Assembly (NCBI GenBank): GCA_965279515.1
Contig: CBDIID010000003.1
Coordinates: forward strand, 128,001-192,000
Source of the DNA: Turneriella sp.
GTDB lineage: Bacteria; Spirochaetota; Leptospiria; Turneriellales; Turneriellaceae
Direction of reading: 5' to 3'
Length of the DNA stretch: 64,000 nucleotides
Shown here: in pieces, positions 8,711 through 31,528 of the stretch
Layout of the letters: the number at the start of each line of letters is the position of its first letter
Position numbering within the stretch: position 1 is the first letter of the stretch
Translations under genes and position numbers: made by a program
The notes under the pieces: generated by a model
What the model saw: the letters and a program-made list of their open reading frames with translations, nothing else
What the model was told of the DNA's origin: nothing
The model's database searches: none

Positions 8711-10045
8711 GGTACAATATCAGAACATCGGTAACGAAAAGTCATCACGACATCGGTAACAGTTCTGCCTCAGGCTTTGCCGTGGTTTCCTCCTGATTTG
8801 GTGTAAACAAATAATTGTTCCGATCGATGTAGCCCAATAGCAGGCTACCGAAGTAGACGTCGATGCGCATGTCGGCGATAAACCGGAGCCCGATCGGGTA
8901 GCCGTTAAAAGAATTGCCGATAAATATCCGGTGCTGCTTGTAGTTGGTGTAACCGCGGTCATTTACGATGCGTACGATGCAATCCTCAGGGTAGGCGGGT
9001 AGTACGTCGCCAGTATACGGAATTTCAGATGGTAGGTAGAACTCTGATGGCGTCCTCATGCCCAGGGCTTCATGCGGTCGCACATTGTTGAAGTCTTCGC
9101 GCCACTGATCAAACGAAATCTGGTGAAGCTTTAGATCACCGCGAATGCGCCCCTGCAGTTCCGTGCGGATGTCTCTGTGCATACGCTCATGTCCGCCATT
9201 CTGCGCTGGCTTTCCCGGATCAATGCGGTCCAGAGAAATTCCCAAGGACAGCCACCAGACTGACAATTTTGTCAGGCCAAAGAGGCCCCACGATGATGCG
9301 AAAGGAGTTCCGTTGTCAGAGCGAATAATTTCCGGCAGACCATAGCGTTTGAAGAGTCTGGCAAAGTGTTGTTTTACATTGGAAATATTGCCCTTTTCCA
9401 GTATCTGTATCGACAGGATGTACTTACTGTACTCATCGCGAACTGTCAGAGGTTCGCATTTCTCTGCATGTGCAGTATACCACCACCCCTTGAAATCAAC
9501 CGTCCATATGTGATTGGGATGCGTCGCCTTTTCGCGAAGCATCAGCCTCTCTCCGGTTCTGCGGCGCTTCTTTCCTCTTGGCCTTGTCAGACCAGAGCGC
9601 GCCAGAAGGCGATCGACTGTAGGCACTGAAATATCGCCTTTGCGCTCGGGGTAAAGCCTGCAGAAGACCGCATAGATCTTCTTGGCTCCCCAGCGAGGCC
9701 TGTTATTCTTTATGCGAATAATGTCGCAGATTGTTTCTTCGTCAGTGCGGTTCGGATTGCCTCCTGGTTTTCGTGACAACTCCGCCAATCCAGCTAAGCC
9801 TTTTTCCAGAAACCTTGCCTTCCACTTGTACCCTGTCTTGGTGCTGATACCAAACTCGCGGCACAGCTCTGTGAAACTCTCTACGCCCTCCAGGGCGCGA
9901 AAGACAAAAGATCTTTTCTCTTCCATTTTGGTAACCTCTTTCCACGGCATTTGAGCCCCCTGCCGAAGGCAGGCAAAAGCCCGTTGCGAAGCAAAGTGTT
10001 ACCGATGTCTTGATAGAAATGTGTTACCTATGTCGTGATAGTACC
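8711..10045 (-). mobile_element. IS481-like insertion sequence, copy 1 (flanks do not form a TSD)
   Basis: 1335 bp, ends GGTAC...GTACC with repeated ACATCGGTAAC boxes; flanks GGCA and TAAT. Confidence 0.92.
8745..9950 (-). CDS. IS481-family DDE transposase
   Basis: N-terminal HTH; WTVDFKG, IRSDNG and ERMHR core; RPHEALG. Confidence 0.92.
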   Translation of the reverse strand: MPWKEVTKMEEKRSFVFRALEGVESFTELCREFGISTKTGYKWKARFLEKGLAGLAELSRKPGGNPNRTDEETICDIIRIKNNRPRWGAKKIYAVFCRLYPERKGDISVPTVDRLLARSGLTRPRGKKRRRTGERLMLREKATHPNHIWTVDFKGWWYTAHAEKCEPLTVRDEYSKYILSIQILEKGNISNVKQHFARLFKRYGLPEIIRSDNGTPFASSWGLFGLTKLSVWWLSLGISLDRIDPGKPAQNGGHERMHRDIRTELQGRIRGDLKLHQISFDQWREDFNNVRPHEALGMRTPSEFYLPSEIPYTGDVLPAYPEDCIVRIVNDRGYTNYKQHRIFIGNSFNGYPIGLRFIADMRIDVYFGSLLLGYIDRNNYLFTPNQEETTAKPEAELLPMS

Positions 10046-10057
10046 TAATGCAATGTC

Positions 10058-10274
10058 ACACAACGTGGATTTTACGCTGACGTTTTTTGACGCTTGTGTC
10101 ATTTATTCAGTTTGTAAAGCCGATTTGCGTCAAAAAATGTGGTCGTAGCGGCTCGCGGCGACGCGCGAAAACACACCTCCCGGTGTGCGCGTCGTCCGCG
10201 ATCTTAGCCGCGGAGACCCGAGCACGCGAGGAGCTACGGCACCGCAGCGGCGCAGCGCGTAAAATTTGTTGTCT
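10058..10274 (-). repeat. attC-like site, type A
   Basis: AAC...GTT bounded repeat. Confidence 0.88.
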
Positions 10275-10483
10275 GAAGTAATTGCGCCTGTGAGCCCGGC
10301 TAGGAGGGCCGGGCGACAACGGCTAAGGCTTCACTGGAAAATTTAAAAAGATACTTAACTCAAAAGTTCTCACAGCCTGCCATTCTGTCGCCTCGCAAAA
10401 CAGGCTTTACGCCTAAGACTTACTGGATTCCGAATGTCTTAGTAAGGAGTAAGTTCCTAGTATTTAATATAGGGGGAAGACCA

Positions 10484-10771
10484 ATGACAGCCTGGTGGAA
10501 TCTATTTAATAAAAGCGAAAGGTATTTCGGGTCATCACCGCTTGCACAACCTGAATGGGCGCAACCTTTGTTAGCTATCGGTACTTTAGTTAGAATTACG
10601 TCCAAGCCTGAAAAAATACGCGAGGTAATTGAAATAGAATGGCATTGGCATCGGCACGAATTTGTGTATGTTATTGAAACTAGCGCATTAAATTTGTCCC
10701 CGCCGTTTAAACCCTACTGGTTTTTAAGTCAATTGGTCTCACATCAAGATAAATCCCTTCGGGCAATATAG
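10484..10771 (+). CDS. Hypothetical protein
   Basis: Most protein-like ORF in the cassette; purine-rich SD-like stretch upstream. Confidence 0.6.
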   Translation: MTAWWNLFNKSERYFGSSPLAQPEWAQPLLAIGTLVRITSKPEKIREVIEIEWHWHRHEFVYVIETSALNLSPPFKPYWFLSQLVSHQDKSLRAI

Positions 10772-10902
10772 AAAATCTTTTCTTACATTCATTTCTAAAA
10801 TAAAGCCCTTTAATGCTATAACTGCCCATAGCTGGTTAGTCTGTCGGTGGAAGTTCGCCGCGCCGACAGGAGGTCGGCGGAGAACAAAGGCGCAATTATT
10901 TC

Positions 10903-11117
10903 AGACAACGTGGAATTTACCTGAGGTTGAGTGACGCCTCGTTCAACTTTGTGTTCTGTAAAGCCATATTGCGTCACTCAATCTGCCCGGAGCGCCTCGC
11001 GGCAAAGCACAAAACAAGCGTCCCGCTTGTGCTTTGTCCGCGATCTTCGGCGCGTAGGGCCGAGCACGCGAGGAGCTACGGCGCCGCAGCGAGCGCAGCA
11101 GGTAAATTTTGTTAGGC
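10903..11117 (-). repeat. attC-like site, type B
   Basis: AAC...GTT bounded repeat. Confidence 0.88.
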
Positions 11118-11171
11118 GAAGAAGCTGGTACGGTAGAGCGGCAAAACATGGAGGTTTTGCCGGTTAAGCGC

Positions 11172-11747
11172 TTACAGGGAAATTGCCCGAACATGGCTAA
11201 AAGCCGGCTGATTAAATGGACGAATTTTCTCGACTGTGCCAATGTTTTCGAGCCATTTAGGATTTTGTTTCTTAACATAGTCGTAAAAGCCTTGTTTTTC
11301 GATCTCATCTTTCGACGCCTCAAATTCCGTAAACTTATGGGTAATTTTACGGAACCCGGTCGAAACATCAAGAGCGTAGCTGCCAGCATAATAGATTTTT
11401 TTAGAAACGACTTTGAACGGTTGGCACTCTTCAATGCATACGAATGTGCTACCACCTAAGCAAATCGTGGCGATTTGATAGGTGCCAGCAGGCACAGCAA
11501 TTGTTGTATATGGATCTGTATTTCTAGTTGAAGAGCCGCTTAAAGCATTTGAGAGATATTCTACGTTTGAGTCAATATTGATAACCGAAAAATTCTCGGA
11601 CATTCGCCCGATCTTACCAATGCCGTCTCGATCGACGAAGATGCCCACTAAGCTCTGACCTTCATGGTAATCAGGAAAGCTCTTACATTGGTTGATCATT
11701 AAGCTACCAAGTACACCTATGATCGATATTATCTTATTGATCTTCAT
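11172..11747 (-). CDS. Putative lipoprotein
   Basis: MKINKIISIIGVLGSLMINQ-C leader. Confidence 0.7.
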   Translation of the reverse strand: MKINKIISIIGVLGSLMINQCKSFPDYHEGQSLVGIFVDRDGIGKIGRMSENFSVINIDSNVEYLSNALSGSSTRNTDPYTTIAVPAGTYQIATICLGGSTFVCIEECQPFKVVSKKIYYAGSYALDVSTGFRKITHKFTEFEASKDEIEKQGFYDYVKKQNPKWLENIGTVEKIRPFNQPAFSHVRAISL

Positions 11748-11893
11748 TCTTGTATGATTTACCCGACTTGCGTTGGTATGCCGTTGTAAATCAATATTCA
11801 AAAAGTCTATTCTTGAACAGCGTCAGAGAGAGACGTGCATGTGCCGACAGGAGGTCGGCATTGGGAAGTCTTGAAATCGTTTCCAGCTTTTTC

Positions 11894-12117
11894 GCCTAAC
11901 GTGGAATTTACACGAGGTCGATGGTGCGCCGCACAATAAAAAGCAGACTTATTTAGAAAGCCGCATATTAAGCACCATCGATCTGCCGTAGACCGCTCGT
12001 TGCGCCTGACCAAACAAACGTCCCGTTTGTCAGGCGTCAACGATCTTTGCGGTCGGAGGCCGAGCACGCGAGGAGCCACGGCACCGCAGCGAGCGCAGCG
12101 TGTAAATTTTGTTGTCG
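11894..12117 (-). repeat. attC-like site, type C
   Basis: AAC...GTT bounded repeat. Confidence 0.88.
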
Positions 12118-12156
12118 GACGTCGCAAATTGGAAAGTTTAGCGTTTCACGAAGGCA

Positions 12157-12546
12157 TTATTTATCTTTCATTCGAAAGAAGTGCACACATAGCCATGCAC
12201 CGCCAATTTCGAAGGCAATATAAGCATAGGTAAAAAATATTCTTTCCGAAGGAACTAAAGCCCTGAGAATTATGTACATTGGCAGCCCAAACGCTAATAG
12301 ATAAACCAAAGCAAATCTCAGATATGTTTTAAGGGTTCTCGGTTGAATCAGTTTGAATGCGTAAATTATGCCGACTAATAATAATGTCGCTAAAAATCTT
12401 ACTGGCAAATAGAAAAATAGACCTAGGATAAAGGCTTCTCCTTCTGATAAACCGTGACCATAAATAGACTGTGGCATTATAAAAAAGAAGCAAATCAAAA
12501 GAGTCGATAGCTTTAAGCGGTTTTGAGTAATATTATTCGAGAACAA
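12157..12546 (-). CDS. Hypothetical membrane protein
   Basis: Fills cassette; multiple TM segments. Confidence 0.7.
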   Translation of the reverse strand: MFSNNITQNRLKLSTLLICFFFIMPQSIYGHGLSEGEAFILGLFFYLPVRFLATLLLVGIIYAFKLIQPRTLKTYLRFALVYLLAFGLPMYIILRALVPSERIFFTYAYIAFEIGGAWLCVHFFRMKDK

Positions 12547-12565
12547 TTTAATCCTTTGCGATGTC

Positions 12566-12783
12566 AGACAACGTGGATTTTACGCTGACGTTTTTTGACG
12601 CTTGTGTCATTTATTCAATTTGTAAAGCCGATTTGCGTCAAAAAATGTGGTCGTAGCGGCTCGCGGCGACGCGCGAAAACACACCTCCCGGTGTGCGCGT
12701 CGTCCGCGATCTCTGGCCGCGGAGACCCGAGCACGCGAGGAGCTACGGCACCGCAGCGGCGCAGCGCGTAAAATTTGTTGGGC
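12566..12783 (-). repeat. attC-like site, type A
   Basis: AAC...GTT bounded repeat. Confidence 0.88.
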
Positions 12784-12796
12784 GACGTATGCTGTT

Positions 12797-13561
12797 CTAT
12801 CGCCAAATCGTATCGGTTCTTTCGAATAGGTTGGTCTTACAGTTGAACTCATATTTTTCAACTTCAAGTTTTGGGCAATCCCAATAATGATTAATTCGTT
12901 CTGCTCGAAATTCTTTGCAAGTACCCAAGCTGGGCTGAGGCAACACAGTATGGGAATATTGCTGTCCTGGGCATTTTGAAGGGTTTACGGAAGCAGGTTT
13001 GCCTATCGGGTGTAGTGTTCCTGTCAGTTCCGTCGAGGTGAATTTTGGCCCCTTCGGTGTCACTACCCGAAGGCAACCGAGACGGCCATTTAGATGGTCA
13101 AAATGATATAATACTAATGACGGAGGGCTTTCTGGGTTAATGGCCTCAATAATATAGCTATTAAATCCAGAACAAGTTCCAGTATACGGTTTATCATTTG
13201 GGACAACTACTGCCTCAGTCATTGATTTCATATATACGATACTTATTGTCGGTTCTGTTTGTGAGGCTCCGCCAGTTTGGCGAAAAACGGACTTATTATG
13301 AACTTCAAGCAAAATATAAGGCGGATTTACGCGATATAAGCGAATCTCTATGTCCGAATGTTCAATTCGTTTTCCAAGTTGAAATTCTACTGTTACTGAT
13401 TTTTCGAATTTATTAATTTCCTCAGCGGAAAGCTCTGGCGCCATATCACTCTTTAAGACGGCCACGACACTTTTCTTAAAAATCTTGAGCGGCAGCTCCT
13501 TCGGTTCCATGAAGTTACCGGACCAATTGCTTGTCAGGAGGGTGAGTAATATTAGCAGCAT
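12797..13561 (-). CDS. Hypothetical exported Cys-containing protein
   Basis: Fills cassette; ATG 12 nt after the crossover G. Confidence 0.75.
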   Translation of the reverse strand: MLLILLTLLTSNWSGNFMEPKELPLKIFKKSVVAVLKSDMAPELSAEEINKFEKSVTVEFQLGKRIEHSDIEIRLYRVNPPYILLEVHNKSVFRQTGGASQTEPTISIVYMKSMTEAVVVPNDKPYTGTCSGFNSYIIEAINPESPPSLVLYHFDHLNGRLGCLRVVTPKGPKFTSTELTGTLHPIGKPASVNPSKCPGQQYSHTVLPQPSLGTCKEFRAERINHYWDCPKLEVEKYEFNCKTNLFERTDTIWR

Positions 13562-13566
13562 ATGTC

Positions 13567-13791
13567 GCCCAACGTTGGAATTACCTGACGTCGATGGTGC
13601 GCCGCACCATAAATGCGGTTTTCTTACAAGAGCCGCTCTTGGCGCGCCATCGATGTGCCGCAGGTGGCTGCGTTGCGCCCGCCAATTAAGCTCGATAGAG
13701 CGCGGGCGTCAACGCATTTCAGGCCACCGGAGGCCGAGCACGCGAGGACCCACGGGACCGCAGCGAGCGCAGCAGGTAATTCTTGTTGTCT
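13567..13791 (-). repeat. attC-like site, type H
   Basis: gaattacctg ... caggtaattc stem. Confidence 0.85.
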
Positions 13792-14017
13792 GAAGTAATT
13801 GCGCCTGTGAGCCCGGGCAGGGAGGCTCGGGCGACGACGAACCAAGTCCCAGAATGATCCAAAATGCTGACTTTTAGTGTCATAACTAGTCATTTTGTCA
13901 CCCTGTAGAAGAGGCTTTACACCTGAGGGATCAGGTGGTCGCGTCGCCTTTGGTGGGGATTAATTTCCTAAATGTTAAGTACTTGCCGTCACATGCGGCA
14001 CCAAATATATTAAGTGC

Positions 14018-14254
14018 ATGAGCGTTGAGACATTGGAGAAAGCACAAGAATTCGCTGCAAATCTGACAACAGAGGAAAAAACGCAGTTGCTTGATTTTCT
14101 ATTGGTAGACCTGCAAAATGAAAATGTCGAGATCAGTCCGGCATGGATTAAGCAAATAGAAGAAAGTGAAGCAGAGATGCTCTCAGGCCGCGATCCCGGT
14201 GTGCCTTGGGCAGAAGTGCAAACGAATATGCGTCGAATCATCGGTGGCTCTTGA
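14018..14254 (+). CDS. Addiction module antitoxin component
   Basis: LTTEEKTQLLDFLL...AWIKQIE...GVPWAEV pattern. Confidence 0.8.
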   Translation: MSVETLEKAQEFAANLTTEEKTQLLDFLLVDLQNENVEISPAWIKQIEESEAEMLSGRDPGVPWAEVQTNMRRIIGGS

Positions 14255-14538
14255 AGCCAGTCATTTTTAGCCGCCGCGCAAACGCACACACCGACTCGAT
14301 CACGAAAGCTTACAGGGATGTTTCGGTATCTGCCGCAACGAAATTTGAGAAGGCCATCAATGTCGCCGTCGGTCATATCACTCTGCAGCCGAAAGCGTGG
14401 GCAAATTTTCATACGCACTATCGGAAATTCATTTTGAAACCGTTTCCTTACGCCATTGTGTATCGGGAGCTAAATGATATTATTCGTGTTCTTGAGATTG
14501 TAGATTTGCGCCGCGAACCGGGTTACTGGCTGAAATAG
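14251..14538 (+). CDS. RelE/ParE family toxin
   Basis: YRKFILKPFPYAIVYR...RREPGYW; TTGA overlap. Confidence 0.85.
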   Translation: MKPVIFSRRANAHTDSITKAYRDVSVSAATKFEKAINVAVGHITLQPKAWANFHTHYRKFILKPFPYAIVYRELNDIIRVLEIVDLRREPGYWLK

Positions 14539-14700
14539 ACCTGAAACCGACTTGCCGCCATTCTGAATGACAAACTTTTCGCCTGAAAGTTTGGGGACGG
14601 CCACCAGATCTATTGAGGAATCATGTTCTTAAATGCTTATTCCATACCGGACCAACTGCGTCGGCACGAGGCCGACGAAGTACAAAGGCGCAATTATTTC

Positions 14701-14916
14701 AGACAACGTGGAAAATACCCGAATTGCGCCCTCGCGGGTGTAAAGTGCAAATAAACACGGTTTATGTGACTTTCGCGGGAGCGCATTTGCCCGTAGCGCC
14801 TCGCGAGCCCGCCAATGCAGGCCCAGTGGCCTGCGGGCGTAGCGATCTTCGGCGCGTAGGGCCGAGCACGCGACCCAACGTAGTGGTCGCGGCGCAGCGG
14901 GTATTTTTTGTTAGCC
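14701..14916 (-). repeat. attC-like site, type D
   Basis: AAC...GTT bounded repeat. Confidence 0.88.
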
Positions 14917-15088
14917 GCCGTTACCGGATTCGCGCGGCTGGCGAGCAACCCGAAGGTCGGCGATATGCTGTAGTTCGATATTATTAGTAACCGAGGAGTT
15001 GTCGCCAGGATCAAAGGCGTAAGCAGCGAAATCTGGCTGTACTCTCTGATAACAAATCCTCTTTTTCTCCCCTTCGGGCGCGAAGGAG

Positions 15089-16423
15089 GGTACAATATCA
15101 GAACATCGGTAACGAAAAGTCATCACGACATCGGTAACAGTTCTGCCTCAGGCTTTGCCGTGGTTTCCTCCTGATTTGGTGTAAACAAATAATTGTTCCG
15201 ATCGATGTAGCCCAATAGCAGGCTACCGAAGTAGACGTCGATGCGCATGTCGGCGATAAACCGGAGCCCGATCGGGTAGCCGTTAAAAGAATTGCCGATA
15301 AATATCCGGTGCTGCTTGTAGTTGGTGTAACCGCGGTCATTTACGATGCGTACGATGCAATCCTCAGGGTAGGCGGGTAGTACGTCGCCAGTATACGGAA
15401 TTTCAGATGGTAGGTAGAACTCTGATGGCGTCCTCATGCCCAGGGCTTCATGCGGTCGCACATTGTTGAAGTCTTCGCGCCACTGATCAAACGAAATCTG
15501 GTGAAGCTTTAGATCACCGCGAATGCGCCCCTGCAGTTCCGTGCGGATGTCTCTGTGCATACGCTCATGGCCACCATTCTGGGCTGGCTTTCCCGGATCA
15601 ATGCGGTCCAGAGAAATTCCCAAGGACAGCCACCAGACTGACAATTTTGTCAGGCCAAAGAGGCCCCACGATGATGCGAAAGGAGTTCCGTTGTCAGAGC
15701 GAATAATTTCCGGCAGACCATAGCGTTTGAAGAGTCTGGCAAAGTGTTGTTTTACATTGGAAATATTGCCCTTTTCCAGTATCTGTATCGACAGGATGTA
15801 CTTACTGTACTCATCGCGAACTGTCAGAGGTTCGCATTTCTCTGCATGTGCAGTATACCACCACCCCTTGAAATCAACCGTCCATATGTGATTGGGATGC
15901 GTCGCCTTTTCGCGAAGCATCAGCCTCTCTCCGGTTCTGCGGCGCTTCTTTCCTCTTGGCCTTGTCAGACCAGAGCGCGCCAGAAGGCGATCGACTGTAG
16001 GCACTGAAATATCGCCTTTGCGCTCGGGGTAAAGCCTGCAGAAGACCGCATAGATCTTCTTGGCTCCCCAGCGAGGCCTGTTATTCTTTATGCGAATAAT
16101 GTCGCAGATTGTTTCTTCGTCAGTGCGGTTCGGATTGCCTCCTGGTTTTCGTGACAACTCCGCCAATCCAGCTAAGCCTTTTTCCAGAAACCTTGCCTTC
16201 CACTTGTACCCTGTCTTGGTGCTGATGCCAAACTCGCGGCACAGCTCTGTGAAACTCTCTACGCCCTCCAGGGCGCGAAAGACAAAAGATCTTTTCTCTT
16301 CCATTTTGGTAACCTCTTTCCACGGCATTTGAGCCCCCTGCCGAAGGCAGGCAAAAGCTCTTTGCGAAGCAAAGTGTTACCGATGTCTTGATAGAAATGT
16401 GTTACCTATGTCGTGATAGTACC
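15089..16423 (-). mobile_element. IS481-like insertion sequence, copy 2
   Basis: 1335 bp; 4-bp TSD GGAG confirmed by the empty allele at ~27709. Confidence 0.93.
15123..16328 (-). CDS. IS481-family DDE transposase
   Basis: Same protein as copy 1; a few synonymous changes. Confidence 0.92.
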   Translation of the reverse strand: MPWKEVTKMEEKRSFVFRALEGVESFTELCREFGISTKTGYKWKARFLEKGLAGLAELSRKPGGNPNRTDEETICDIIRIKNNRPRWGAKKIYAVFCRLYPERKGDISVPTVDRLLARSGLTRPRGKKRRRTGERLMLREKATHPNHIWTVDFKGWWYTAHAEKCEPLTVRDEYSKYILSIQILEKGNISNVKQHFARLFKRYGLPEIIRSDNGTPFASSWGLFGLTKLSVWWLSLGISLDRIDPGKPAQNGGHERMHRDIRTELQGRIRGDLKLHQISFDQWREDFNNVRPHEALGMRTPSEFYLPSEIPYTGDVLPAYPEDCIVRIVNDRGYTNYKQHRIFIGNSFNGYPIGLRFIADMRIDVYFGSLLLGYIDRNNYLFTPNQEETTAKPEAELLPMS

Positions 16424-16435
16424 GGAGGTAATGGT

Positions 16436-16650
16436 GGCTAACGTGGAATTTACCTGACGTTTGGTGACACTTGTGTCATTAATTCAATCAGGAAAGCCGA
16501 TTTGTGTCACCAAATGTGCCCGGAGCGCCTCGCGGCAAAGCACAAAACAAGCGTCCCGCTTGTGCTTTGTCCGCGATCTTGGGCGCGCAGGGCCGAGCAC
16601 GCGAGGAGCTACGGCACCGCAGCGAGCGCAGCAGGTAAATTTTGTTGGGC
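16436..16650 (-). repeat. attC-like site, type B
   Basis: AAC...GTT bounded repeat. Confidence 0.88.
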
Positions 16651-16669
16651 GATGTGCGCGATGGATTAG

Positions 16670-16975
16670 TTAGTCAGCAACAACTCTTAAGGATGTCTCC
16701 ATCTGGATGGCCATTTGGCTCAACTCTATTAAAGACGACAAGCAGGAATCGGTAGACTCATTAATTCCCTTAAGTGAAAGGCACTCTGCCTTGAAGGCCT
16801 CAAGCTCGGCAAACACTATAACAGAATCGGCCCAATAATCGGCAAGTCTCTGAAAAATCTGGCAGGATTTCTCTATGGCCTTCAGTCGTAATGCCTCATG
16901 ATCGCCAAGTCCCATGGAGACAAACTTTATGTCGTCACCTGGCACTGAGCCTGCTATATGAAAATCTAAGCCCAT
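16670..16975 (-). CDS. Hypothetical protein
   Basis: Second ORF of a two-gene cassette. Confidence 0.7.
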   Translation of the reverse strand: MGLDFHIAGSVPGDDIKFVSMGLGDHEALRLKAIEKSCQIFQRLADYWADSVIVFAELEAFKAECLSLKGINESTDSCLSSLIELSQMAIQMETSLRVVAD

Positions 16976-16978
16976 AGT

Positions 16979-17623: not shown

Positions 17624-17640
17624 ATTTCTTCGCGCATTTC

Positions 17641-17858
17641 GCCCAACGTGGATTTTACGCTGACGTTTTTTGACGCTTGTGTCATTTATTCAGTCTGTAA
17701 AGCCGATTTGCGTCAAAAAATGTGGTCGTAGCGGCTCGCGGCGACGCGCGAAAACACACCTCCCGGTGTGCGCGTCGTCCGCGATCTTTTGCCGCGGAGA
17801 CCCGAGCACGCGAGGAGCTACGGCACCGCAGCGGCGCAGCGCGTAAAATTTGTTGGCT
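17641..17858 (-). repeat. attC-like site, type A
   Basis: AAC...GTT bounded repeat. Confidence 0.88.
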
Positions 17859-17870
17859 GCCGTAGCGAAG

Positions 17871-22859: not shown

Positions 22860-22869
22860 TGACTCTGTC

Positions 22870-23080
22870 GCACAACGTTGGAATTTCGCGAGGTGATTGA
22901 CGCGTCAATAAAACTGGTCTTATATGAAGCAGCTTCGCGTCAATCATCTGCCCGGAGCGCTTCGCGAGCCTGCCAAAAACACACCTCCCGGTGTGGCAGG
23001 CGCAGCGATCTTTAGCGCGTAGGGCCGAGCACGCGACCCAACGGAGTGGTCGCGGGCGCAGCGCGAAATTCTTGTTCTCT
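22870..23080 (-). repeat. attC-like site, type G
   Basis: gaatttcgcg ... cgcgaaattc stem. Confidence 0.88.
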
Positions 23081-23193
23081 GCAGTGTTTAGCTACGTTAG
23101 CCGCGGGCGACATGGAGGTCGCTCGCGGACGGCTTTGCCAGAATTAAGAGCTTTTTCTGGGCAAATTTATACACTGTATGTACATTGTACATA

Positions 23194-23484
23194 GTGAAGC
23201 TGGCTTTTGTATGGGATGAAGCCAAGAATCTCGAGAATATTAGGAAGCATGGAGTCTCTTTCAAGGAAGCCAGCACGATCTTTGGCCGTATACCGTATGA
23301 GATTTACGATGATCCAGATCATTCAGAAAAGGAGCATCGGTATCTGGCAATCGGCTTCAGCGATAAGGCTCGCGCCTTACTGGTAAGCCATACTGAAAAT
23401 GCGACTGGCACAGAGATTAGAATTATATCTGCTCGCAAAATGACGAAACAAGAACGGGCAGACGCGTTTGGAGGCAAACTATGA
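23194..23484 (+). CDS. brnT: BrnT family toxin (second copy)
   Basis: Diverged copy of 309-599; GTG start. Confidence 0.9.
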   Translation: MKLAFVWDEAKNLENIRKHGVSFKEASTIFGRIPYEIYDDPDHSEKEHRYLAIGFSDKARALLVSHTENATGTEIRIISARKMTKQERADAFGGKL

Positions 23485-23711
23485 GAAAGGAATATGATCT
23501 AACCAAACTGACGAAGGCTTCGCCTAAATACTTGAAACACATAAAGAAGCCGGTGACGATTCGGCTTGAGCCACAGATAATTGCATATTTTAAGGGCCTG
23601 GCAGAAACTACCGGATTGCCTTACCAATCGTTACTGAATTTTGTTCTACGCGACTATGCTAACGAGAACAGGAAACCCAATGCGAATTGGGGAAAAGTAG
23701 CTTCGCGCTAA
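23481..23711 (+). CDS. brnA: BrnA family antitoxin (second copy)
   Basis: One amino-acid difference from 596-826. Confidence 0.88.
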   Translation: MRKEYDLTKLTKASPKYLKHIKKPVTIRLEPQIIAYFKGLAETTGLPYQSLLNFVLRDYANENRKPNANWGKVASR

Positions 23712-23759
23712 GGCGGCCGGCAAGGATGCCGGACGCTCTTCTCTATTGCTAAACATTGC

Positions 23760-23976
23760 AGAGAACGTGGATTTTACGCTGACGTTTTTTGACGCTTGTG
23801 TCATTTAATCAAATTGTAAAGCCGATTTGCGTCAAAAAATGTGGTCGTAGCGGCTCGCGGCGACGCGCGAAAATACACCTCCCGGTGTGCGCGTCGTCCG
23901 CGATCTTTGCCGCGTAGGGCCGAGCACGCGAGGAGCTACGGCACCGCAGCGGCGCAGCGCGTAAAATTTGTTCTCT
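23760..23976 (-). repeat. attC-like site, type A
   Basis: AAC...GTT bounded repeat. Confidence 0.88.
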
Positions 23977-24108
23977 GACGTAGTTGCGCGTGACCACCCG
24001 ACCAAGGATGGGCGGGTGGGCATTCGAATAAGAGTCTTGCCTGGAATAATGATTAGTTGACCTTGTATCTTGCGATCAATTATGCTTTTTATGGCTGGCT
24101 CTTCCCAA

Positions 24109-24696
24109 ATGTTGAATTTTCGACTTGGACTCATCAGTACCATTCCTATACTGATATTTGTTCAATGTAACGTATTGAGTGTCTCTTATAAACGACGCAG
24201 TGATTTAAGAGAGCCTGAAATTTGCCCGCAAAGTAAGCGAACAGCGCCAGTTGGCTATAATTTATTCTCGACTAATCGGTTTCAAATACAAACTGATCTC
24301 AAAGTTAGCTGGGAAGCCCATCGGTATTGGGCTCTTGCTTCAATCATACCAACCCTTGGTTTCTTGCGAACTGTCGCTATGAACTCTATCGAATTAAAGG
24401 TTACTAACAACAGGCCGTTACCAATAATATTTTCTCAATGTGATGTACTTTTTTTTGATACGAATAATATTTCTACAAAAATAGGAGTTAGTGTTCCAAA
24501 CTGTGAGCAATTACCTAAGTACACAGTTTTACCACAAAAGACCGTTCAAATCGATGTCGAACAAGAAGAAATGACTGTCGCTAGTTTAAAGACTATCAAG
24601 ATAAATTTCAGGTCTGCGAGCCAGACCGATTTGTTGTCACAGGACATTAACATCGAAGAAGATTGGAGCCTCTGCTTTTCGGCAATAAACCGTTAG
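24109..24696 (+). CDS. Putative lipoprotein
   Basis: MLNFRLGLISTIPILIFVQ-C leader. Confidence 0.68.
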   Translation: MLNFRLGLISTIPILIFVQCNVLSVSYKRRSDLREPEICPQSKRTAPVGYNLFSTNRFQIQTDLKVSWEAHRYWALASIIPTLGFLRTVAMNSIELKVTNNRPLPIIFSQCDVLFFDTNNISTKIGVSVPNCEQLPKYTVLPQKTVQIDVEQEEMTVASLKTIKINFRSASQTDLLSQDINIEEDWSLCFSAINR

Positions 24697-24755
24697 AATT
24701 GCAAGAAACTCTGCGCCGCCACGGATGGCGGCGAAGTAAAGCGCGCAACTATGTC

Positions 24756-24978
24756 AGAGAACGTGGAATTTACACGAGGTCGATGGTGCGTCGCACAATG
24801 AAGACTGGCTTATTTGGAAAGCCGCGTATCAAGCACCATCGATCTGCCGTAGACCGCTCGTTGCGCCTGACCAAACAAACGTCCCGTTTGTCAGGCGTCA
24901 ACGATCTTTGCGGTCGGAGGCCGAGCACGCGAGGAGCTACGGCACCGCAGCGAGCGCAGCGTGTAAATTTTGTTGTAC
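24756..24978 (-). repeat. attC-like site, type C
   Basis: AAC...GTT bounded repeat. Confidence 0.88.
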
Positions 24979-25025
24979 GCAGTTGCCGATCGAATACAAC
25001 CTGTCTTTGATGAGATTTTGGTAAA

Positions 25026-25469
25026 TTATGTAATTTCACCGACCATGCCGTCCCAATACAAGGTTTCACTCTCAAGCTTAGAAAAGCGTCTAAGCAATCG
25101 CCCTAGATTGTTTATGCCAGCCGGTTCGCATGGAATCGAAAAATCAGTAAGAGCCCGAATTGGATGATCCAAATTGTTGGCAAATCTAAGGTTAATCGCC
25201 GCATGGCCGCTTGAATCTATTAAATAAACCCGGAATCTAAAGAAGAAGGCAAATCTAGCTTTTGGGTCTTCGGAGCCTAATTCCCAAAGAAAATTGTCCT
25301 TATTATTCTTAGGAAATTCTTCTAAGGCATTGGCGCATAAAATAAGTGATTCTGCATTATCATAAATTTCTAGTTCACCAGCTTGGTGACCATTCGAAGC
25401 CTCAATAACTAAATTTATGTGATAAGGCTCTTCGTACGGAATTCTCACTAATTTCAATGAATTCTTCAT
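25026..25469 (-). CDS. Hypothetical protein
   Basis: Fills cassette. Confidence 0.75.
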   Translation of the reverse strand: MKNSLKLVRIPYEEPYHINLVIEASNGHQAGELEIYDNAESLILCANALEEFPKNNKDNFLWELGSEDPKARFAFFFRFRVYLIDSSGHAAINLRFANNLDHPIRALTDFSIPCEPAGINNLGRLLRRFSKLESETLYWDGMVGEIT

Positions 25470-25493
25470 GTGTAATTATCTCTCGGCAATTGC

Positions 25494-25709
25494 GTACAAC
25501 GCGGAATTTACCTGACGTTTGGTGACACCTGTGTCATTAATTTAGATGGAAAAGCCGCCTTGTGTCACCAAATGTGCCCGGAGCGCCTCGCGGCAAAGCA
25601 CAAAACAAGCGTCCCGCTTGTGCTTTGTCCGCGATCTTCTGGCGCGCAGGGCCGAGCACGCGAGGAGCCACGGCACCGCAGCGAGCGCAGCAGGTAAATT
25701 TTGTTGTGC
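25494..25709 (-). repeat. attC-like site, type B
   Basis: AAC...GTT bounded repeat. Confidence 0.88.
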
Positions 25710-25738
25710 GTCGTAGTTAAACTGGCAAAAATGTTTGT

Positions 25739-27253
25739 TTACTCCTGTGCTCCAAGTAAGTATCCAGAGGTAAGACCTTTGGACTTTAGCCAATCTTTAA
25801 CGGCGGTTTTATTGCCTGCAATAACGCTATCAATTTCGCTATCTTTCGGAAGGGACCAAAACTGAATACCTATTAGCCTGGAGAAAATATTGCGGATTTT
25901 GTCAAAATCTGTATCCGTCAATTCTCTATAGAATGGCCGCGCTCGCTCATCACTATCAGTAATTTCAAGTTTTGCACAGACTGCATCGCGAAATAATTCC
26001 GACCATGCCATGATGCTCTTTGAAGCGAAAATGCGTTCTAACTTGATTTGTTCCGTTTTTGTAGGGGAAGAATCTTTGTTCCAGTTAAAGAGAGCCAAAT
26101 CAAACAAAATATTCAATAACTGTATATTGTTTGAAAACTCAAGTTCACGTTTGTAACTATCGCTGGCCATATTGTCCGCAACCGGCTCAGTGTTCAAGAA
26201 GCACGAAAAAATAGATTTTGAGAGCATATCGACGGTAATTGGCTCCTCCATTGAGCCACGATTGCTGCTAGAAATAAGAGATTTCATCTTATTCGTTGGG
26301 TCATTCAGAACTGAATCGTACAGGTAGCTGCGAAACCTTTTGTTCCTTTCTGCACGCGTCATTGTTGTATCTTGAATCCTTTCTAAATATTCCAAGAAGC
26401 CAATTTCTGATTTGACTTGGCCGTCTTCGATGTTCTTGTATGCTTCGAAATCTTTGCCAAACTGTTGACCTAATTTTTGAATCAGGACTGGTGAAAAAAA
26501 TCTGGTTTGAGCAAACCTGTCATGGGCTGCAATGTTTGTTTGGTTTAGAATTCGTATTTCTGGGTTAACGTAGATTTTGCATTCTAGAATTTTCCGGCCA
26601 TTCCACAACAGAGCGGCGGCCTTATGCTGCCCATCAAACAGTAGTATTTTATCGCCTTTCACCCTGCCGATTGATGGCTGCAAAACCGGATAAATCTGAA
26701 AATGTCGGTATAATTCAAAAACTTTGTCAAAAATTAGATATCGAGGCTGCAAGCCAATAGATTGATCATCTTCATCATCGCTGTTGAGAATATCGATTGG
26801 CAAATTACCGTAAAAATATTTCCATTTCGTCAGAGGACACACATGCAGGTCAAAAGCATTATTAAACGAATGATTTTCTGCACTGATGATCTTGCCGCTT
26901 TCCTTAAGCGATACAGATTGGCCAAAATCTGTAATTAGCTTCTTTGTCTTAAAGAATTCAAGCAGGTGCTTTAATGTTTGTTTTTCACCGTTCTCGAAAA
27001 ATTCTTCGATTTGCAACTTAATTCGGAAGTCTTCAAGAGGCAGCATACCCTTTGCTTTGTTGTGAAATTCGCACATTGGTGCAATATTGTCCAGTTCGCT
27101 TTGACCACCAAGGGCATGGGCTCTAATGTGATCAAAATGGAGTTTGTCACTTTCGGGAATGTCATGATTATTGGCGAAGCATTTGCGACCAAATCTGGTA
27201 AGAATGGTCTTCTTCTCTTCTTCGTTTAGTTGTCTTTTTAAAGTTATAGCCAT
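25739..27253 (-). CDS. HNH endonuclease fused to a ParB/DGQHR-like domain
   Basis: HFDHIRAHALGG...NIAPMCEFHNKAK; LLFDGQHKAAA. Confidence 0.8.
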   Translation of the reverse strand: MAITLKRQLNEEEKKTILTRFGRKCFANNHDIPESDKLHFDHIRAHALGGQSELDNIAPMCEFHNKAKGMLPLEDFRIKLQIEEFFENGEKQTLKHLLEFFKTKKLITDFGQSVSLKESGKIISAENHSFNNAFDLHVCPLTKWKYFYGNLPIDILNSDDEDDQSIGLQPRYLIFDKVFELYRHFQIYPVLQPSIGRVKGDKILLFDGQHKAAALLWNGRKILECKIYVNPEIRILNQTNIAAHDRFAQTRFFSPVLIQKLGQQFGKDFEAYKNIEDGQVKSEIGFLEYLERIQDTTMTRAERNKRFRSYLYDSVLNDPTNKMKSLISSSNRGSMEEPITVDMLSKSIFSCFLNTEPVADNMASDSYKRELEFSNNIQLLNILFDLALFNWNKDSSPTKTEQIKLERIFASKSIMAWSELFRDAVCAKLEITDSDERARPFYRELTDTDFDKIRNIFSRLIGIQFWSLPKDSEIDSVIAGNKTAVKDWLKSKGLTSGYLLGAQE

Positions 27254-27320
27254 TTAGAATTTCCTATTGGGACTTGTTCTTATTCTCTCGTGAAAAGATA
27301 TATTATTTTTTAACTATGAC

Positions 27321-27539
27321 GCACAACGTGGAAAATACCCGAATTGCGCCCCCGCGGGTGTAAAGTGTAAATAATCACGGCTTTATGTGACTTTCGCGGG
27401 AGCGCATTTGCCCGAAGCGCCTCGCGGCAAAGCACAGAACAAGCGTCCCGCTTGTGCTTTGTCCGCGATCTTTGGCGCGCAGGGCCGAGCACGCGAGCCA
27501 ACGAAGTGCTCGCGGCGCAGCGGGTATTTTTTGTTAGCC
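27321..27539 (-). repeat. attC-like site, type D (mosaic)
   Basis: D outer stem with B-type inner hairpin. Confidence 0.88.
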
Positions 27540-27727
27540 GCCGTTACCGGATTCGCGCGGCTGGCGAGCAACCCGAAGGTCAGCGAGATACTGTAGTTCG
27601 ATATTATTAGTAACCGAGGAGTTGTCGCCAGGATCAAAGGCGTAAGCAGCGAAATCTGGTTGTACTCTCTGATAACAAATCCTCTTTTTCTCCCCTTCGG
27701 GGCGCGAAGGAGGTAATGGTGGCTAAC
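27533..27727 (-). other. ORF-less 195-bp cassette
   Basis: Matching end IRs gttagccgccgttacc / ggtaatggtggctaac; no ATG-started ORF of note. Confidence 0.8.
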
Positions 27728-27938
27728 GTTGGATTTTACGCTGACGTTTTTTGACGCTTGTGTCATTTATTCAATCTGTAAAGCCGATTTGCGTCAAAAA
27801 ATGTGGTCGTAGCGGCTCGCGGCGACGCGCGAAAACACACCTCCCGGTGTGCGCGTCGTCCGCGATCTTTGCCGCGGAGACCCGAGCACGCGAGGAGCTA
27901 CGGCACCGCAGCGGCGCAGCGCGTAAAATTTGTTGGGC
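27721..27938 (-). repeat. attC-like site, type A
   Basis: AAC...GTT bounded repeat. Confidence 0.88.
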
Positions 27939-28029
27939 GCCGTTGTCGCTACGTAAAGCTCGGCCAAGGAGGGCCGAGCGTGAGCCTTTTCCCCTGATTA
28001 TTCGAGAAAATGCTTTTTAGCCTGTTCAC

Positions 28030-28569
28030 ATGAAACAATTCGGAATTATGTCGCATTGGGGATGGACCATATTTCTTGTCATACTACTTGGGTGTAAAAC
28101 CGCCCCGCCGGATTCGGTTGAAACGCTTAATGATGTTCAATTAGAAGAGGACGAAGACCCCGCTGATTCAACGCGACTTATAATCAAGAAAATTGGACAT
28201 ACAGAGGCCAATGGCTTCAGACAATTAAGTGTACGAATCGAAATTTCTAGCTACGGCGAAGTTATGCAGTCTTTTCAAGAGCTCTTCATTACTTTTGGCT
28301 CGATTGAAAAGCTAGTCTTCGGTGAAAAGATTGCCTATTTCATTTCATGCGACAGGCAAGGGTCAACTTGGGCTGCCAAGAAAGCCATTATTGTATGGGA
28401 TAAAGAAGGCATTTGGAGTATTTTGCCGCTGCATTTTGATCGCGCCACGCTTCATAAAAATGAGAAGCGTTTCCTGATAGATGAGAAAATTGGCGTGATC
28501 GGCGAAAATCCTACTGGGAACCAGCTCTATGAGTTCAATGATGGCTTGCTAACATTGTATAAACCCTGA
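28030..28569 (+). CDS. Putative lipoprotein
   Basis: FLVILLG-C lipobox. Confidence 0.75.
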   Translation: MKQFGIMSHWGWTIFLVILLGCKTAPPDSVETLNDVQLEEDEDPADSTRLIIKKIGHTEANGFRQLSVRIEISSYGEVMQSFQELFITFGSIEKLVFGEKIAYFISCDRQGSTWAAKKAIIVWDKEGIWSILPLHFDRATLHKNEKRFLIDEKIGVIGENPTGNQLYEFNDGLLTLYKP

Positions 28570-28639
28570 CTGACGTCATCCTGTTCAGCTTGCAAACAGG
28601 CGCGCAAGGATGCGCGCGAAATCGAAATTGATTTATGCG

Positions 28640-29974
28640 GGTACAATATCAGAACATCGGTAACGAAAAGTCATCACGACATCGGTAACAGTTCTGCCTC
28701 AGGCTTTGCCGTGGTTTCCTCCTGATTTGGTGTAAACAAATAATTGTTCCGATCGATGTAGCCCAATAGCAGGCTACCGAAGTAGACGTCGATGCGCATG
28801 TCGGCGATAAACCGGAGCCCGATCGGGTAGCCGTTAAAAGAATTGCCGATAAATATCCGGTGCTGCTTGTAGTTGGTGTAACCGCGGTCATTTACGATGC
28901 GTACGATGCAATCCTCAGGGTAGGCGGGTAGTACGTCGCCAGTATACGGAATTTCAGATGGTAGGTAGAACTCTGATGGCGTCCTCATGCCCAGGGCTTC
29001 ATGCGGTCGCACATTGTTGAAGTCTTCGCGCCACTGATCAAACGAAATCTGGTGAAGCTTTAGATCACCGCGAATGCGCCCCTGCAGTTCCGTGCGGATG
29101 TCTCTGTGCATACGCTCATGTCCGCCATTCTGCGCTGGCTTTCCCGGATCAATGCGGTCCAGAGAAATTCCCAAGGACAGCCACCAGACTGACAATTTTG
29201 TCAGGCCAAAGAGGCCCCACGATGATGCGAAAGGAGTTCCGTTGTCAGAGCGAATAATTTCCGGCAGACCATAGCGTTTGAAGAGTCTGGCAAAGTGTTG
29301 TTTTACATTGGAAATATTGCCCTTTTCCAGTATCTGTATCGACAGGATGTACTTACTGTACTCATCGCGAACTGTCAGAGGTTCGCATTTCTCTGCATGT
29401 GCAGTATACCACCACCCCTTGAAATCAACCGTCCATATGTGATTGGGATGCGTCGCCTTTTCGCGAAGCATCAGCCTCTCTCCGGTTCTGCGGCGCTTCT
29501 TTCCTCTTGGCCTTGTCAGACCAGAGCGCGCCAGAAGGCGATCGACTGTAGGCACTGAAATATCGCCTTTGCGCTCGGGGTAAAGCCTGCAGAAGACCGC
29601 ATAGATCTTCTTGGCTCCCCAGCGAGGCCTGTTATTCTTTATGCGAATAATGTCGCAGATTGTTTCTTCGTCAGTGCGGTTCGGATTGCCTCCTGGTTTT
29701 CGTGACAACTCCGCCAATCCAGCTAAGCCTTTTTCCAGAAACCTTGCCTTCCACTTGTACCCTGTCTTGGTGCTGATACCAAACTCGCGGCACAGCTCTG
29801 TGAAACTCTCTACGCCCTCCAGGGCGCGAAAGACAAAAGATCTTTTCTCTTCCATTTTGGTAACCTCTTTCCACGGCATTTGAGCCCCCTGCCGAAGGCA
29901 GGCAAAAGCCCGTTGCGAAGCAAAGTGTTACCGATGTCTTGATAGAAATGTGTTACCTATGTCGTGATAGTACC
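28640..29974 (-). mobile_element. IS481-like insertion sequence, copy 3
   Basis: 1335 bp; 4-bp TSD TGCG. Confidence 0.93.
28674..29879 (-). CDS. IS481-family DDE transposase
   Basis: Identical protein to copy 1. Confidence 0.92.
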   Translation of the reverse strand: MPWKEVTKMEEKRSFVFRALEGVESFTELCREFGISTKTGYKWKARFLEKGLAGLAELSRKPGGNPNRTDEETICDIIRIKNNRPRWGAKKIYAVFCRLYPERKGDISVPTVDRLLARSGLTRPRGKKRRRTGERLMLREKATHPNHIWTVDFKGWWYTAHAEKCEPLTVRDEYSKYILSIQILEKGNISNVKQHFARLFKRYGLPEIIRSDNGTPFASSWGLFGLTKLSVWWLSLGISLDRIDPGKPAQNGGHERMHRDIRTELQGRIRGDLKLHQISFDQWREDFNNVRPHEALGMRTPSEFYLPSEIPYTGDVLPAYPEDCIVRIVNDRGYTNYKQHRIFIGNSFNGYPIGLRFIADMRIDVYFGSLLLGYIDRNNYLFTPNQEETTAKPEAELLPMS

Positions 29975-29986
29975 TGCGACAATGGC

Positions 29987-30202
29987 GCCCAACGTGGAAT
30001 TTACCTGACGTTTGGTGACACTTGTGTCATTAATTTAATAAGGAAAGCCAAATTGTGTCACCAAATGTGCCCGGAGCGCCTCGCGGCAAAGCACAAAACA
30101 AGCGTCCCGCTTGTGCTTTGTCCGCGATCTTCTGGCGCGTAGGGCCGAGCACGCGAGGAGCCACGGCACCGCAGCGAGCGCAGCAGGTAAATTTTGTTGT
30201 AC
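29987..30202 (-). repeat. attC-like site, type B
   Basis: AAC...GTT bounded repeat. Confidence 0.88.
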
Positions 30203-30221
30203 GTCGTGTTTGGGGATCAAT

Positions 30222-31226
30222 TTAGTAAGGTGTTCTCTTTATCCAGTTAAGGTATTCTGGGCTTCGTTGACTTCCGTAGTTTGTAAGGGCTTCATTAAGC
30301 CAATCTTTGGGGTTTGGCTTTGCTTGAATATTAAACTTCGGATCATCCATACATTCCGCGAAGTAATATACTATTTTACCCTTATGACCGAAAATGGTGA
30401 CGATAGTTCTGGTTAGTTCGCCCCGTTCATTTGGGTGATGTTTTTTGTAGCTTTCAAGGTAAACAAAATACTCTAAGAGTTTATCGTATTGTATCGGCGC
30501 AGCTTTACCGACGAAGATTTTTTGGGGTTTCAAGAAAGATAGGTTTCGCCTCGCTTTACTTTCAAAATATTTATCAATCGCAGCTATGTTGTCAGACATT
30601 AGGTGTTTCTTTATATTTTCAAAGCTATGAATATCATTCGAGTAGTGGTATATTACCTGTTGGGATTGACTTGTGTCAAAACTAAAAAAATTACTGTCCG
30701 GAAAAACGGGCTTCAGTATGTAGGTTTGAGTTTTCTTATTGGGATCGAAGAGTTGAGTTAAAATTTTCTCAGATTCTTGTTCTGTTACTGTAGGACCATC
30801 ATCCTTCGGAAAAAAGATGCGCACTAAACTGTATATTTTTGGGGCTTCGTACAAAATGTAGGCAACATATGTTATTTTGAACTGAGGATCATCTTTGCTC
30901 TTTAAGACGGCCGAAAGTCGCGTTTTGCCAATTAAAGTACTAATCTTAATTTCACTCACATGCGGCTCGGCCTTAGATAACCATTCTTTTCTCCGCTGTT
31001 CTAAATCATCGATGTGAAAGCCGCCATATTCTACCTCCACTAATGGCATTGAAAATTTAGCTTTATCGGTCATGCCTGCGCTGAGCTCAATGGCCTTTAG
31101 GTCATTTTCTGTTGCGAAATAACTGGCTACTCTCCTGTTCGGAAAATTCGGGACAAATTTATATTCAGCAATATCTTCAGACCACAAGGGAATCGAAGCT
31201 AAAAAAACAAGGACTATTGCTTTCAT
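30222..31226 (-). CDS. Hypothetical exported protein
   Basis: Signal peptide MKAIVLVFLASIPLWS; fills cassette. Confidence 0.78.
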   Translation of the reverse strand: MKAIVLVFLASIPLWSEDIAEYKFVPNFPNRRVASYFATENDLKAIELSAGMTDKAKFSMPLVEVEYGGFHIDDLEQRRKEWLSKAEPHVSEIKISTLIGKTRLSAVLKSKDDPQFKITYVAYILYEAPKIYSLVRIFFPKDDGPTVTEQESEKILTQLFDPNKKTQTYILKPVFPDSNFFSFDTSQSQQVIYHYSNDIHSFENIKKHLMSDNIAAIDKYFESKARRNLSFLKPQKIFVGKAAPIQYDKLLEYFVYLESYKKHHPNERGELTRTIVTIFGHKGKIVYYFAECMDDPKFNIQAKPNPKDWLNEALTNYGSQRSPEYLNWIKRTPY

Positions 31227-31282
31227 ATTCGGTTAATAGATTTTAGAAAGCCTATGGTGAAAAGTAAAATAGTCAAGCCACG

Positions 31283-31299
31283 TATGTCGTGATAGTACC
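31283..31299 (-). mobile_element. 17-bp IS end remnant
   Basis: TATGTCGTGATAGTACC is identical to the terminus of the three IS copies. Confidence 0.75.
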
Positions 31300-31311
31300 C
31301 CCAAACATGAC

Positions 31312-31528
31312 GTACAACGTGGATTTTACGCTGACGTTTTTTGACGCTTGTGTCATTTAATCAATTTGTAAAGCCGATTTGCGTCAAAAAATGTGGTCGT
31401 AGCGGCTCGCGGCGACGCGCGAAAACACACCTCCCGGTGCGCGCGTCGTCCGCGATCTTTGCCGCGAAGACCCGAGCACGCGAGGAGCTACGGCACCGCA
31501 GCGGCGCAGCGCGTAAAATTTGTTGTGT
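31312..31528 (-). repeat. attC-like site, type A
   Basis: AAC...GTT bounded repeat. Confidence 0.88.

Follow-up and report, generated by a model that had tools for sequence, protein, structure and literature searches.

Few insertion sequences (IS) are known to choose their targets precisely, and a 64,000-nucleotide stretch of a Turneriella sp. genome raises the question of how such a choice is made. The stretch, hereafter the window, corresponds to C3:128001-192000 of a 4.9 Mb genome (C3 being contig CBDIID010000003.1) and carries three copies of a 1335-bp IS481-like element, each lying at one spacing and in one orientation beside an imperfect palindrome that resembles attC, the recombination site of integron cassettes. 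An original prediction, made from the window alone, held that this element inserts exactly 19 nt from the attC crossover. Here we examine that placement across the genome and among relatives of the element. With high confidence, insertion is targeted relative to the attC-like site, and the IS together with its spirochaete relatives is a newly found case of site-specific IS targeting beside a recombination site.

We refer to the transposase-proximal end of the IS, next to the start of the transposase gene, as IRL (left inverted repeat) and to the opposite end as IRR (right inverted repeat). Within the window, copy 1 occupies 8711..10045, copy 2 15089..16423 and copy 3 28640..29974, all on the - strand, and a solo 17-nt remnant of the transposase-proximal end lies at 31283..31299 on the same strand. 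From each of these ends to the C of an AAC triplet there are exactly 19 nt: 10046..10064 for copy 1, 16424..16442 for copy 2, 29975..29993 for copy 3 and 31300..31318 for the scar. The triplets open attC-like sites of two types, type A at 10062..10270 (AAC...GTT, 209 nt, the + strand being the bottom strand) and 31316..31524, and type B at 16440..16646 and 29991..30198. Genome-wide, the IS is represented by 7 full copies, which are 98.7-100% identical, by 1 truncated copy and by 2 end remnants. All of their IRL ends (10/10) and IRR ends (7/7) are on one strand and within two arrays of AAC...GTT repeats, at C3:90.8-169.9 kb and 3734-3805 kb, with no IS end across the remaining ~4.7 Mb of the genome. 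Between IRL and the C of AAC the spacing is 19 nt for 7/10 ends and 18 nt for 2/10, the last end being rearranged, and 9 of the 112 AAC sites of the arrays are occupied. Chance cannot account for this placement. The predicted spacing, the shared orientation, the use of both site types and the lack of copies in the genomic backbone are all borne out.

The 112 repeats of the arrays are imperfect palindromes of 205-217 nt (~207 nt), an unusual length. Like attC they have inverted core sites AAC/GTT, and in their inner boxes one arm carries bases that are left unpaired. An Rfam scan of the window yielded a tRNA and no other hit. The bulges are asymmetric, with 4 against 2 unpaired nt beside the core, and the extra unpaired bases are on the arm that adjoins the + strand AAC. 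The site folds at -71 and -74 kcal/mol on the two strands (z -4.8 and -4.2); in this genus the stem runs about 20 bp past AAC/GTT, and the IS target is at the outer end of this stem. In one cassette family, at least 10 paralogues agree as far as ...GGCTAAC, beyond which they continue into four different site types; this puts the crossover at the AAC core. Because of this crossover position, the arm that holds the unpaired bases and the strand of the open reading frames (ORFs), which are mostly on the - strand in the window, we take the cassettes to be read on the - strand. The two ends of each site carry 12-nt inverted repeats, the R' and R'' arms (for example 10053-10064, the last 12 nt of the copy 1 interval, and 10268-10279), with one fixed difference: at position 11, 97% of R' arms have A and 100% of R'' arms have G. 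When the + strand folds, position 11 forms a G-T wobble, and when the - strand folds, an A-C mismatch; this could be a strand-choice signal.

Seen in cassette orientation, the IS closely follows the R' GTT and occupies the 5' leader of the cassette that comes next, with the transposase read in the same direction as the cassettes of this genome. Every occupied site is thus separated by the IS from the gene of the following cassette. In this genus the two strands are cut at staggered points, 12 and 16 bp past the R' GTT, that is 14 and 18 bp from the crossover between the G and the TT, and the landing point is 3 bp past the conserved 12-nt arm that begins at the crossover GTT. The recombination site and the cassette gene are both left intact. 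The safe slot that had been proposed for the element therefore exists, inasmuch as the arm and the cassette gene are spared, although its location is the 5' leader of the following cassette and not the 3' end of a cassette ahead of its own attC.

What is conserved at this slot is the arm and nothing else. At the 103 sites without an IS, with numbering from the C of AAC, positions 1-12 carry 0.7-2 bits of information, whereas positions 13-19 carry 0.16-0.31 bits and the four positions that become the target site duplication (TSD, positions 16-19) 0.17-0.31 bits. At least 9 different target sequences have been used, and CGCA, the commonest tetramer at empty sites (23/103), was nevertheless used in only 1/9 insertions. 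These values agree with the claim that the distance is measured from the site and that no unrelated target motif explains the insertions. The R'' arm is nearly identical to R', and yet IS ends occur on 0/98 R'' sides; a 9-mer match found on one R'' side was dismissed as a chance match. Something asymmetric must therefore be read, whether position 11, the L' side or a bound protein.

The copies record repeated and independent transposition. Perfect 4-bp TSDs flank 4/7 full copies (GGAG, TGCG, TAAG, CGCA) and a 3-bp TSD (GAG) flanks one. For copy 2, GGAG stands at 15085..15088 and again at the start of 16424..16442, where 15 nt follow up to the C of AAC, and its cassette has at least 10 IS-free paralogues, each with a single GGAG. 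For copy 3, TGCG stands at 28636..28639 and, again followed by 15 nt, opens 29975..29993; an IS-free stretch (C3:108500-108799), 100% identical to the left flank of this copy, continues through a single TGCG into the arm. Copy 1 has no TSD. The paralogue of its left flank (C3:109035-109334) has a different 15 nt ahead of the AAC, from which it follows that copy 1 joins the left flank of one insertion (at 19 nt, target GGCA) to the right flank of another. Such hybrid flanks, derived from two different cassettes, are what recombination between two IS copies would produce. The four tetramers that had been listed as targets (TAAT, GGAG, TGCG and CCCA) are present as described; GGAG and TGCG are true 4-bp TSDs, while TAAT is unduplicated owing to the hybrid flanks of copy 1 and CCCA lies beside the scar. 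Most pairs of IS copies differ by 0-3 single-nucleotide polymorphisms (SNPs), and this near-identity points to probable recent activity. Two IS-bearing cassettes of the GGAG family are 3 SNPs apart in the IS while their flanks are only about 97% identical, and they therefore look like separate insertions, not one moved cassette. The suggestion that the IS becomes a passenger of a mobile cassette accordingly stays unproven.

The IS was delimited by the three window copies, which match base for base with similarity ending abruptly at both tips. Each copy holds one gene on the - strand, a single uninterrupted ORF of 401 aa (8745..9950 in copy 1, here P0001; 15123-16328 in copy 2; 28674-29879 in copy 3, which is identical to copy 1), and no accessory gene. 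The transposase matches the Pfam models rve, rve_3, HTH_32 and LZ_Tnp_IS481 (26 bits against a cut-off of 22.2). Its best NCBIfam family is IS481 (NF033577) at 209.8 bits, with IS3 at 123; this is below the equivalog cut-off of 224, for which reason we name the element IS481-like. The tips are imperfect inverted repeats that start with GGTAC and, with the short TSD, fit the IS481 family; a subterminal repeat, GACAT(A/C)GGTAAC, occurs in two copies at each end. The residues D152, D212 and E255 are invariant across 21 aligned homologues. An AlphaFold model (predicted local distance difference test score, pLDDT, 81) contains two helical N-terminal domains, an RNase-H core of the DDE (rve) type and an all-beta C-terminal domain; its top fold matches are TnsB, IstA, MuA and retroviral integrases, and its build of two helix-turn-helix (HTH) domains, DDE core and beta-barrel resembles that of TnsB, IstA and MuA.

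A search for homologues, limited to one genome per species, gave 80 loci, 69 of which were scored. At 18 loci in 13 spirochaete genomes the IS tip lies just past a GTT that closes an attC-like hairpin of 99-178 nt, at 15 nt (n=1), 16 nt (n=7), 17 nt (n=9) or 18 nt (n=1), distances good to about 1 nt. The hosts are Leptospira vanthielii, kemamanensis, ognonensis, abararensis and soteropolitanensis together with metagenome-assembled genomes (MAGs) of Leptospirales, Spirochaetia and Spirochaetaceae. The extended stem is shorter in these genomes and the insertion distance is nonetheless kept. TSDs of 3-4 bp flank 5 of the 18 loci, and further copies of the 3' end of the site were found nearby in the same orientation at 9 of the 17 loci tested. 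Our scanner for attC-like sites, which combines 7-nt R''/R' complementarity with folding energy, was too strict: it recovered 1 of at least 4 sites in locus L104 and found a partner for only 10/18 IS-adjacent sites. Since the following cassette supplies the outer 4 nt of R', the sites were judged instead by inspection, folds and repeated 3' ends. Two congeners carry diverged or decayed IS copies exactly 19 nt from the C of AAC. Targeting thus recurs in a monophyletic clade present in 16 genomes, with the exact 19 nt confined to the genus.

In a tree of 34 transposases (13 of 47 ORFs, shorter than 330 aa, were dropped), 9 targeted elements and 1 of unknown context form a group with a Shimodaira-Hasegawa-like approximate likelihood-ratio (SH-aLRT) support of 97, and this group joins a sister pair in a 12-row group, likewise with an SH-aLRT of 97. 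The sister lineage, from one Spirochaetia MAG (L018-L027), resides in a cassette array and uses a second geometry. In 7/9 of its copies it is IRR that points towards the site, at a distance of 25 nt (5 loci) or 26 nt (2 loci) ahead of AAC: the same side of the site, 6 bp further out and flipped, with the IS antisense to the cassettes. Its copies have 4-bp TSDs in 6/9 cases. Among homologues of at most 47% identity (from Verrucomicrobiota, Myxococcota, Planctomycetota and other phyla), no such site was visible by eye on either side of the element.

The identity of the recombinase that serves these arrays bears on what the transposase could be reading. No canonical integron integrase was found in the genome (the best TIGR02249 score is 93 bits per stretch), and none of its only 4 tyrosine recombinases is near the arrays. 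One of them, P0003 (366 aa, C3:2926093-2927193, outside the window), is encoded 2.75 Mb from both arrays. Its gene is present in 12/13 congeners, and in the 4/4 congeners examined the orthologue and an array of these repeats are immediate neighbours; a P0003-like recombinase occurs in all 5 of the other targeted-copy genomes searched, and a P0003-like gene lies about 17 kb from the array of the sister lineage. P0002, a 358-aa recombinase of a Leptospirales MAG that is 41% identical to P0003, adjoins an attI-like GTT and a cassette array carrying an IS, and a Leptospira MAG has the same layout. These array recombinases are Xer-like proteins of 358-388 aa with an N-terminal extension of about 90 aa. 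P0002 and P0003 score 161-193 bits against TIGR02249 (cut-off 265) and the IntI-specific insert is missing from both, residues 180-234 of IntI4 (2a3v) aligning to only 14 residues of P0002. Since the IntI-specific domain is absent, we use the terms attC-like for the sites and non-canonical integron for the arrays; the attC identity that had been assumed thus becomes a likeness, which extends to the hairpin sites and their crossover and not to an integrase of canonical IntI type. The integrase result covers few genomes, namely its own, 4 congeners and 2 other Leptospirales genomes (L115, L117-L120, L104, L107).

Both arrays close with an attI-like junction (42673-42694 in the window, closing array 1, and C3:3805399), in which the conserved arm runs to AAC and is followed by GTCTATTA..CTG.ATTGCG, like the attI region of a congener; at 42673..42694 no recombinase gene follows. 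With such a junction on each array, an ancestral integron seems to have been duplicated or split and parted from its integrase. According to the portion of PMC3607928 (2013) that concerns spirochaetes, Treponema is the only clade among them with integrons, and in the open full-text literature, whose coverage leaves subscription journals aside, we found no paper on an integron in Turneriella.

How, then, is the site read? The account we favour, tentatively, is that of a site-specific IS clade with a fixed place and orientation beside attC-like sites, in which the transposase itself reads the duplex R' end. It would recognise, through its N-terminal helix-turn-helix domains, the asymmetric R' end of the duplex site, that is the 12-bp arm together with the neighbouring L' side. 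Docking there would hold the catalytic core some one and a half turns of the helix away, the cuts outside the arm would give 3-4 bp duplications of arbitrary sequence, and IRL would face the site, leaving the IS in the 5' leader of the following cassette. We favour direct reading because the element encodes one protein and no selector gene and because the arm is the only sequence conserved across genomes. It is the most likely mode to judge from the sequences, and the contact between transposase and arm is a predicted one. Measuring from a landmark in this way would resemble what sequence-reading transposases and Tn7-type selectors do. IS1397 and ISKpn1 (IS3 family) have an rve-type DDE transposase that is directed to repetitive extragenic palindromic (REP) sequences, with IS1397 entering the loop of the palindrome, while Tn7 inserts at a fixed distance from its attTn7 landmark by means of separate selector proteins, TnsC and TnsD. 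The 1335-bp element described here, with one gene and neither selector nor ATPase genes, is not Tn7-like.

Several observations weigh against this account. TSDs are absent from 2/7 full copies in this genome and from most of the Leptospira copies, and we attribute their loss, without proof, to recombination between IS copies. The truncated copy (C3:89513-90770, outside the window, 94% identical), which forms the far edge of array 1, has its IRL end joined to the inside of a repeat, an arrangement that hints at a deletion next to the IS. In the sister lineage, 2/9 copies lie away from any clear site. Among the homologues, 11 partial-match loci were left unscored and 8 loci had flanks too short or no end motif, and the tips outside this genome were set by inverted-repeat alignment, whence the 1-nt latitude of the distances. 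Finally, a P0003-type recombinase is present in every targeted-copy genome that was checked, a pattern with which tethering of the transposase to the recombinase is equally compatible.

Tethering of this kind, in which a P0003-family recombinase on the R' arm is the docking partner of the transposase and insertion takes place immediately beyond the footprint of the recombinase, strikes us as somewhat doubtful but deserves to be taken seriously. It draws on the distribution just mentioned (5/5 other targeted genomes searched, 12/13 congeners and the gene ~17 kb from the array of the sister lineage), and the exclusive use of R' in spite of near-identical arms would suit an asymmetric protein complex. 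The geometry also resembles that of the ISAjo2-type IS1202 elements, which the relevant sections of PMC10132070 place 5 bp from the XerC arm of pdif and for which docking of the same sort on XerC has been proposed. Against it stands the position of the recombinase gene in this genome, 2.75 Mb from the arrays, while the IS copies still look recently active. A structure prediction for the complex of the transposase and P0003 gave a score of 0.00, hence no verdict, and weighs neither way.

A broader proposal goes further than tethering and is, in our view, rather unlikely as a whole: that the arrays belong to an unrecognised Leptospirales integron lineage with a Xer-like integrase lacking the IntI domain, and that the IS481-like clade has co-evolved with it, using the R'-bound recombinase as its target selector. 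If this were true, a tyrosine recombinase would act as guide to a DDE transposase, in convergence with the pairing of IS1202 and XerC, and two sub-lineages would dock on it in opposite directions about half a helical turn apart (19 against 25 nt).

It is improbable that the transposase senses structure instead, recognising the base of an extruded hairpin or cruciform on which bulges in one arm set side and orientation. The site does fold strongly on either strand, the target is at the outer end of the extended stem, and the bulges (4 versus 2 unpaired nt) and position 11 (G-T wobble versus A-C mismatch, depending on the strand) would provide the asymmetry; DDE strand transfer nevertheless needs a duplex target, and in other genomes the extended stem is shorter while the distance is the same.

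That there is no targeting, with random insertion followed by survival of only those copies in a harmless slot, is scarcely credible. In its favour, an insertion in this slot leaves the recombination site and the cassette gene unharmed. Against it, at least 9 independent events agree to the nucleotide in position and orientation, the corresponding slot on the R'' side was never used, about 150 kb of largely dispensable array DNA is without any other insertion, and the copies, being near-identical, are young. Just as hard to credit is a single insertion spread by cassette duplication, integrase action or homologous recombination, for although cassette families are multi-copy (one with at least 12 copies) and some IS copies have hybrid flanks, the flanking cassettes and TSDs differ (GGAG, TGCG, TAAG, CGCA, GAG) and the IS copies resemble one another (99.3-100%) more closely than do the flanking stretches of paralogous cassettes (about 97%).

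Direct reading of the R' end by the transposase, the account we prefer, also has to be set against the systems already known to home on such sites. The IS1111-attC group is reportedly the subject of work by Tetu and Holmes in 2008 and by Post and Hall in 2009. The passages on attC in the open literature cite as hunters of this site only the IS1111-attC group and the group IIC-attC introns. In the same literature, with subscription journals again outside its coverage, we found in the parts that concern attC no description of targeting by an IS481-type element. As described in the pertinent part of PMC11187229, the IS1111-attC group (IS110/IS1111) shares with the present element its specialisation on cassette recombination sites and its single orientation, and differs in having an RNA-guided DEDD transposase that inserts inside attC without a duplication of the DDE type. 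The element described here has an rve-type DDE transposase, inserts 12-16 bp outside the core with TSDs of 3-4 bp and does not belong to that group. The group IIC-attC introns, in the account given by the corresponding part of PMC3001079, likewise home on attC in one orientation and leave the cassette gene intact; they differ as retro-elements that enter the attC stem by RNA-DNA recognition.

A further likeness is with the ISAjo2-type IS1202 elements, which the portion of PMC10132070 devoted to them describes as DDE insertion sequences with a single gene, an HTH-HTH-DDE-beta-barrel transposase and short TSDs, inserted in one orientation 5 bp from a tyrosine recombinase arm at pdif/dif and bearing a second transposase-binding repeat near each end. 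They differ in belonging to another transposase family, in having proteins of 441-457 aa and TGT/ACA tips, and in using Xer targets in place of hairpin cassette sites. The present transposase scores 33 bits against the NCBIfam ISNCY_2 model, which has a cut-off of 250, and is therefore not an IS1202 element, although the overall fold class is common to both.

The known attC hunters rely either on an RNA guide, as IS1111 does, or on retro-homing, as do the group IIC introns. A plain DDE transposase that acts as a single protein and measures a set distance from a cassette recombination site is a third solution. The recurrence of targeting throughout the clade, in two geometries, offers a simple system in which to ask how a transposase reads a landmark. 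The IS also seeds homologous recombination within the arrays, as the hybrid copies, the solo ends and the split array of this genome illustrate, and it marks giant cassette arrays with an integrase of another type than canonical IntI.

Some further features of the arrays and of the wider family were noted. A small cassette of ~400 bp occurs in at least 12 copies over the two arrays, sometimes in tandem with a spacing of 396-400 bp; in the window it is found at about 2550-2780, 8190-8400, 14700-15088 and 27320-27700 (repeat families D12, D15, D18, D20). The site next to it is of a third type (AACGTGGAAAATAC...), which lacks a matching GTT motif. At both ends the sites are bordered by GC-rich hairpins whose loops, on the + strand, resemble AGGAGG or AGGATG (for example 10285-10310), and the insertion point of the IS is between such a hairpin and the arm (repeat families D11, D13). 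By cumulative GC skew, C3 has its origin near 2.78 Mb and its terminus near 0.30 Mb; the two arrays share one replichore, array 1 near the terminus, and the bottom strand of the attC-like sites is the + strand, which is the leading, G-rich one. Beyond the spirochaetes, distant homologues of the transposase in Verrucomicrobiota, Myxococcota and Planctomycetota belong to elements flanked by tandem repeats of 6-7 nt (units such as CCTGTAG, GGCTAAA and TTCATCC), often 5-15 nt from the IRR end and with 4-bp TSDs at several loci. These repeats were seen at L030, L031, L038, L042, L043, L046, L049, L063, L066, L070, L083, L084 and others, and the wider transposase family may target tandem-repeat tracts.

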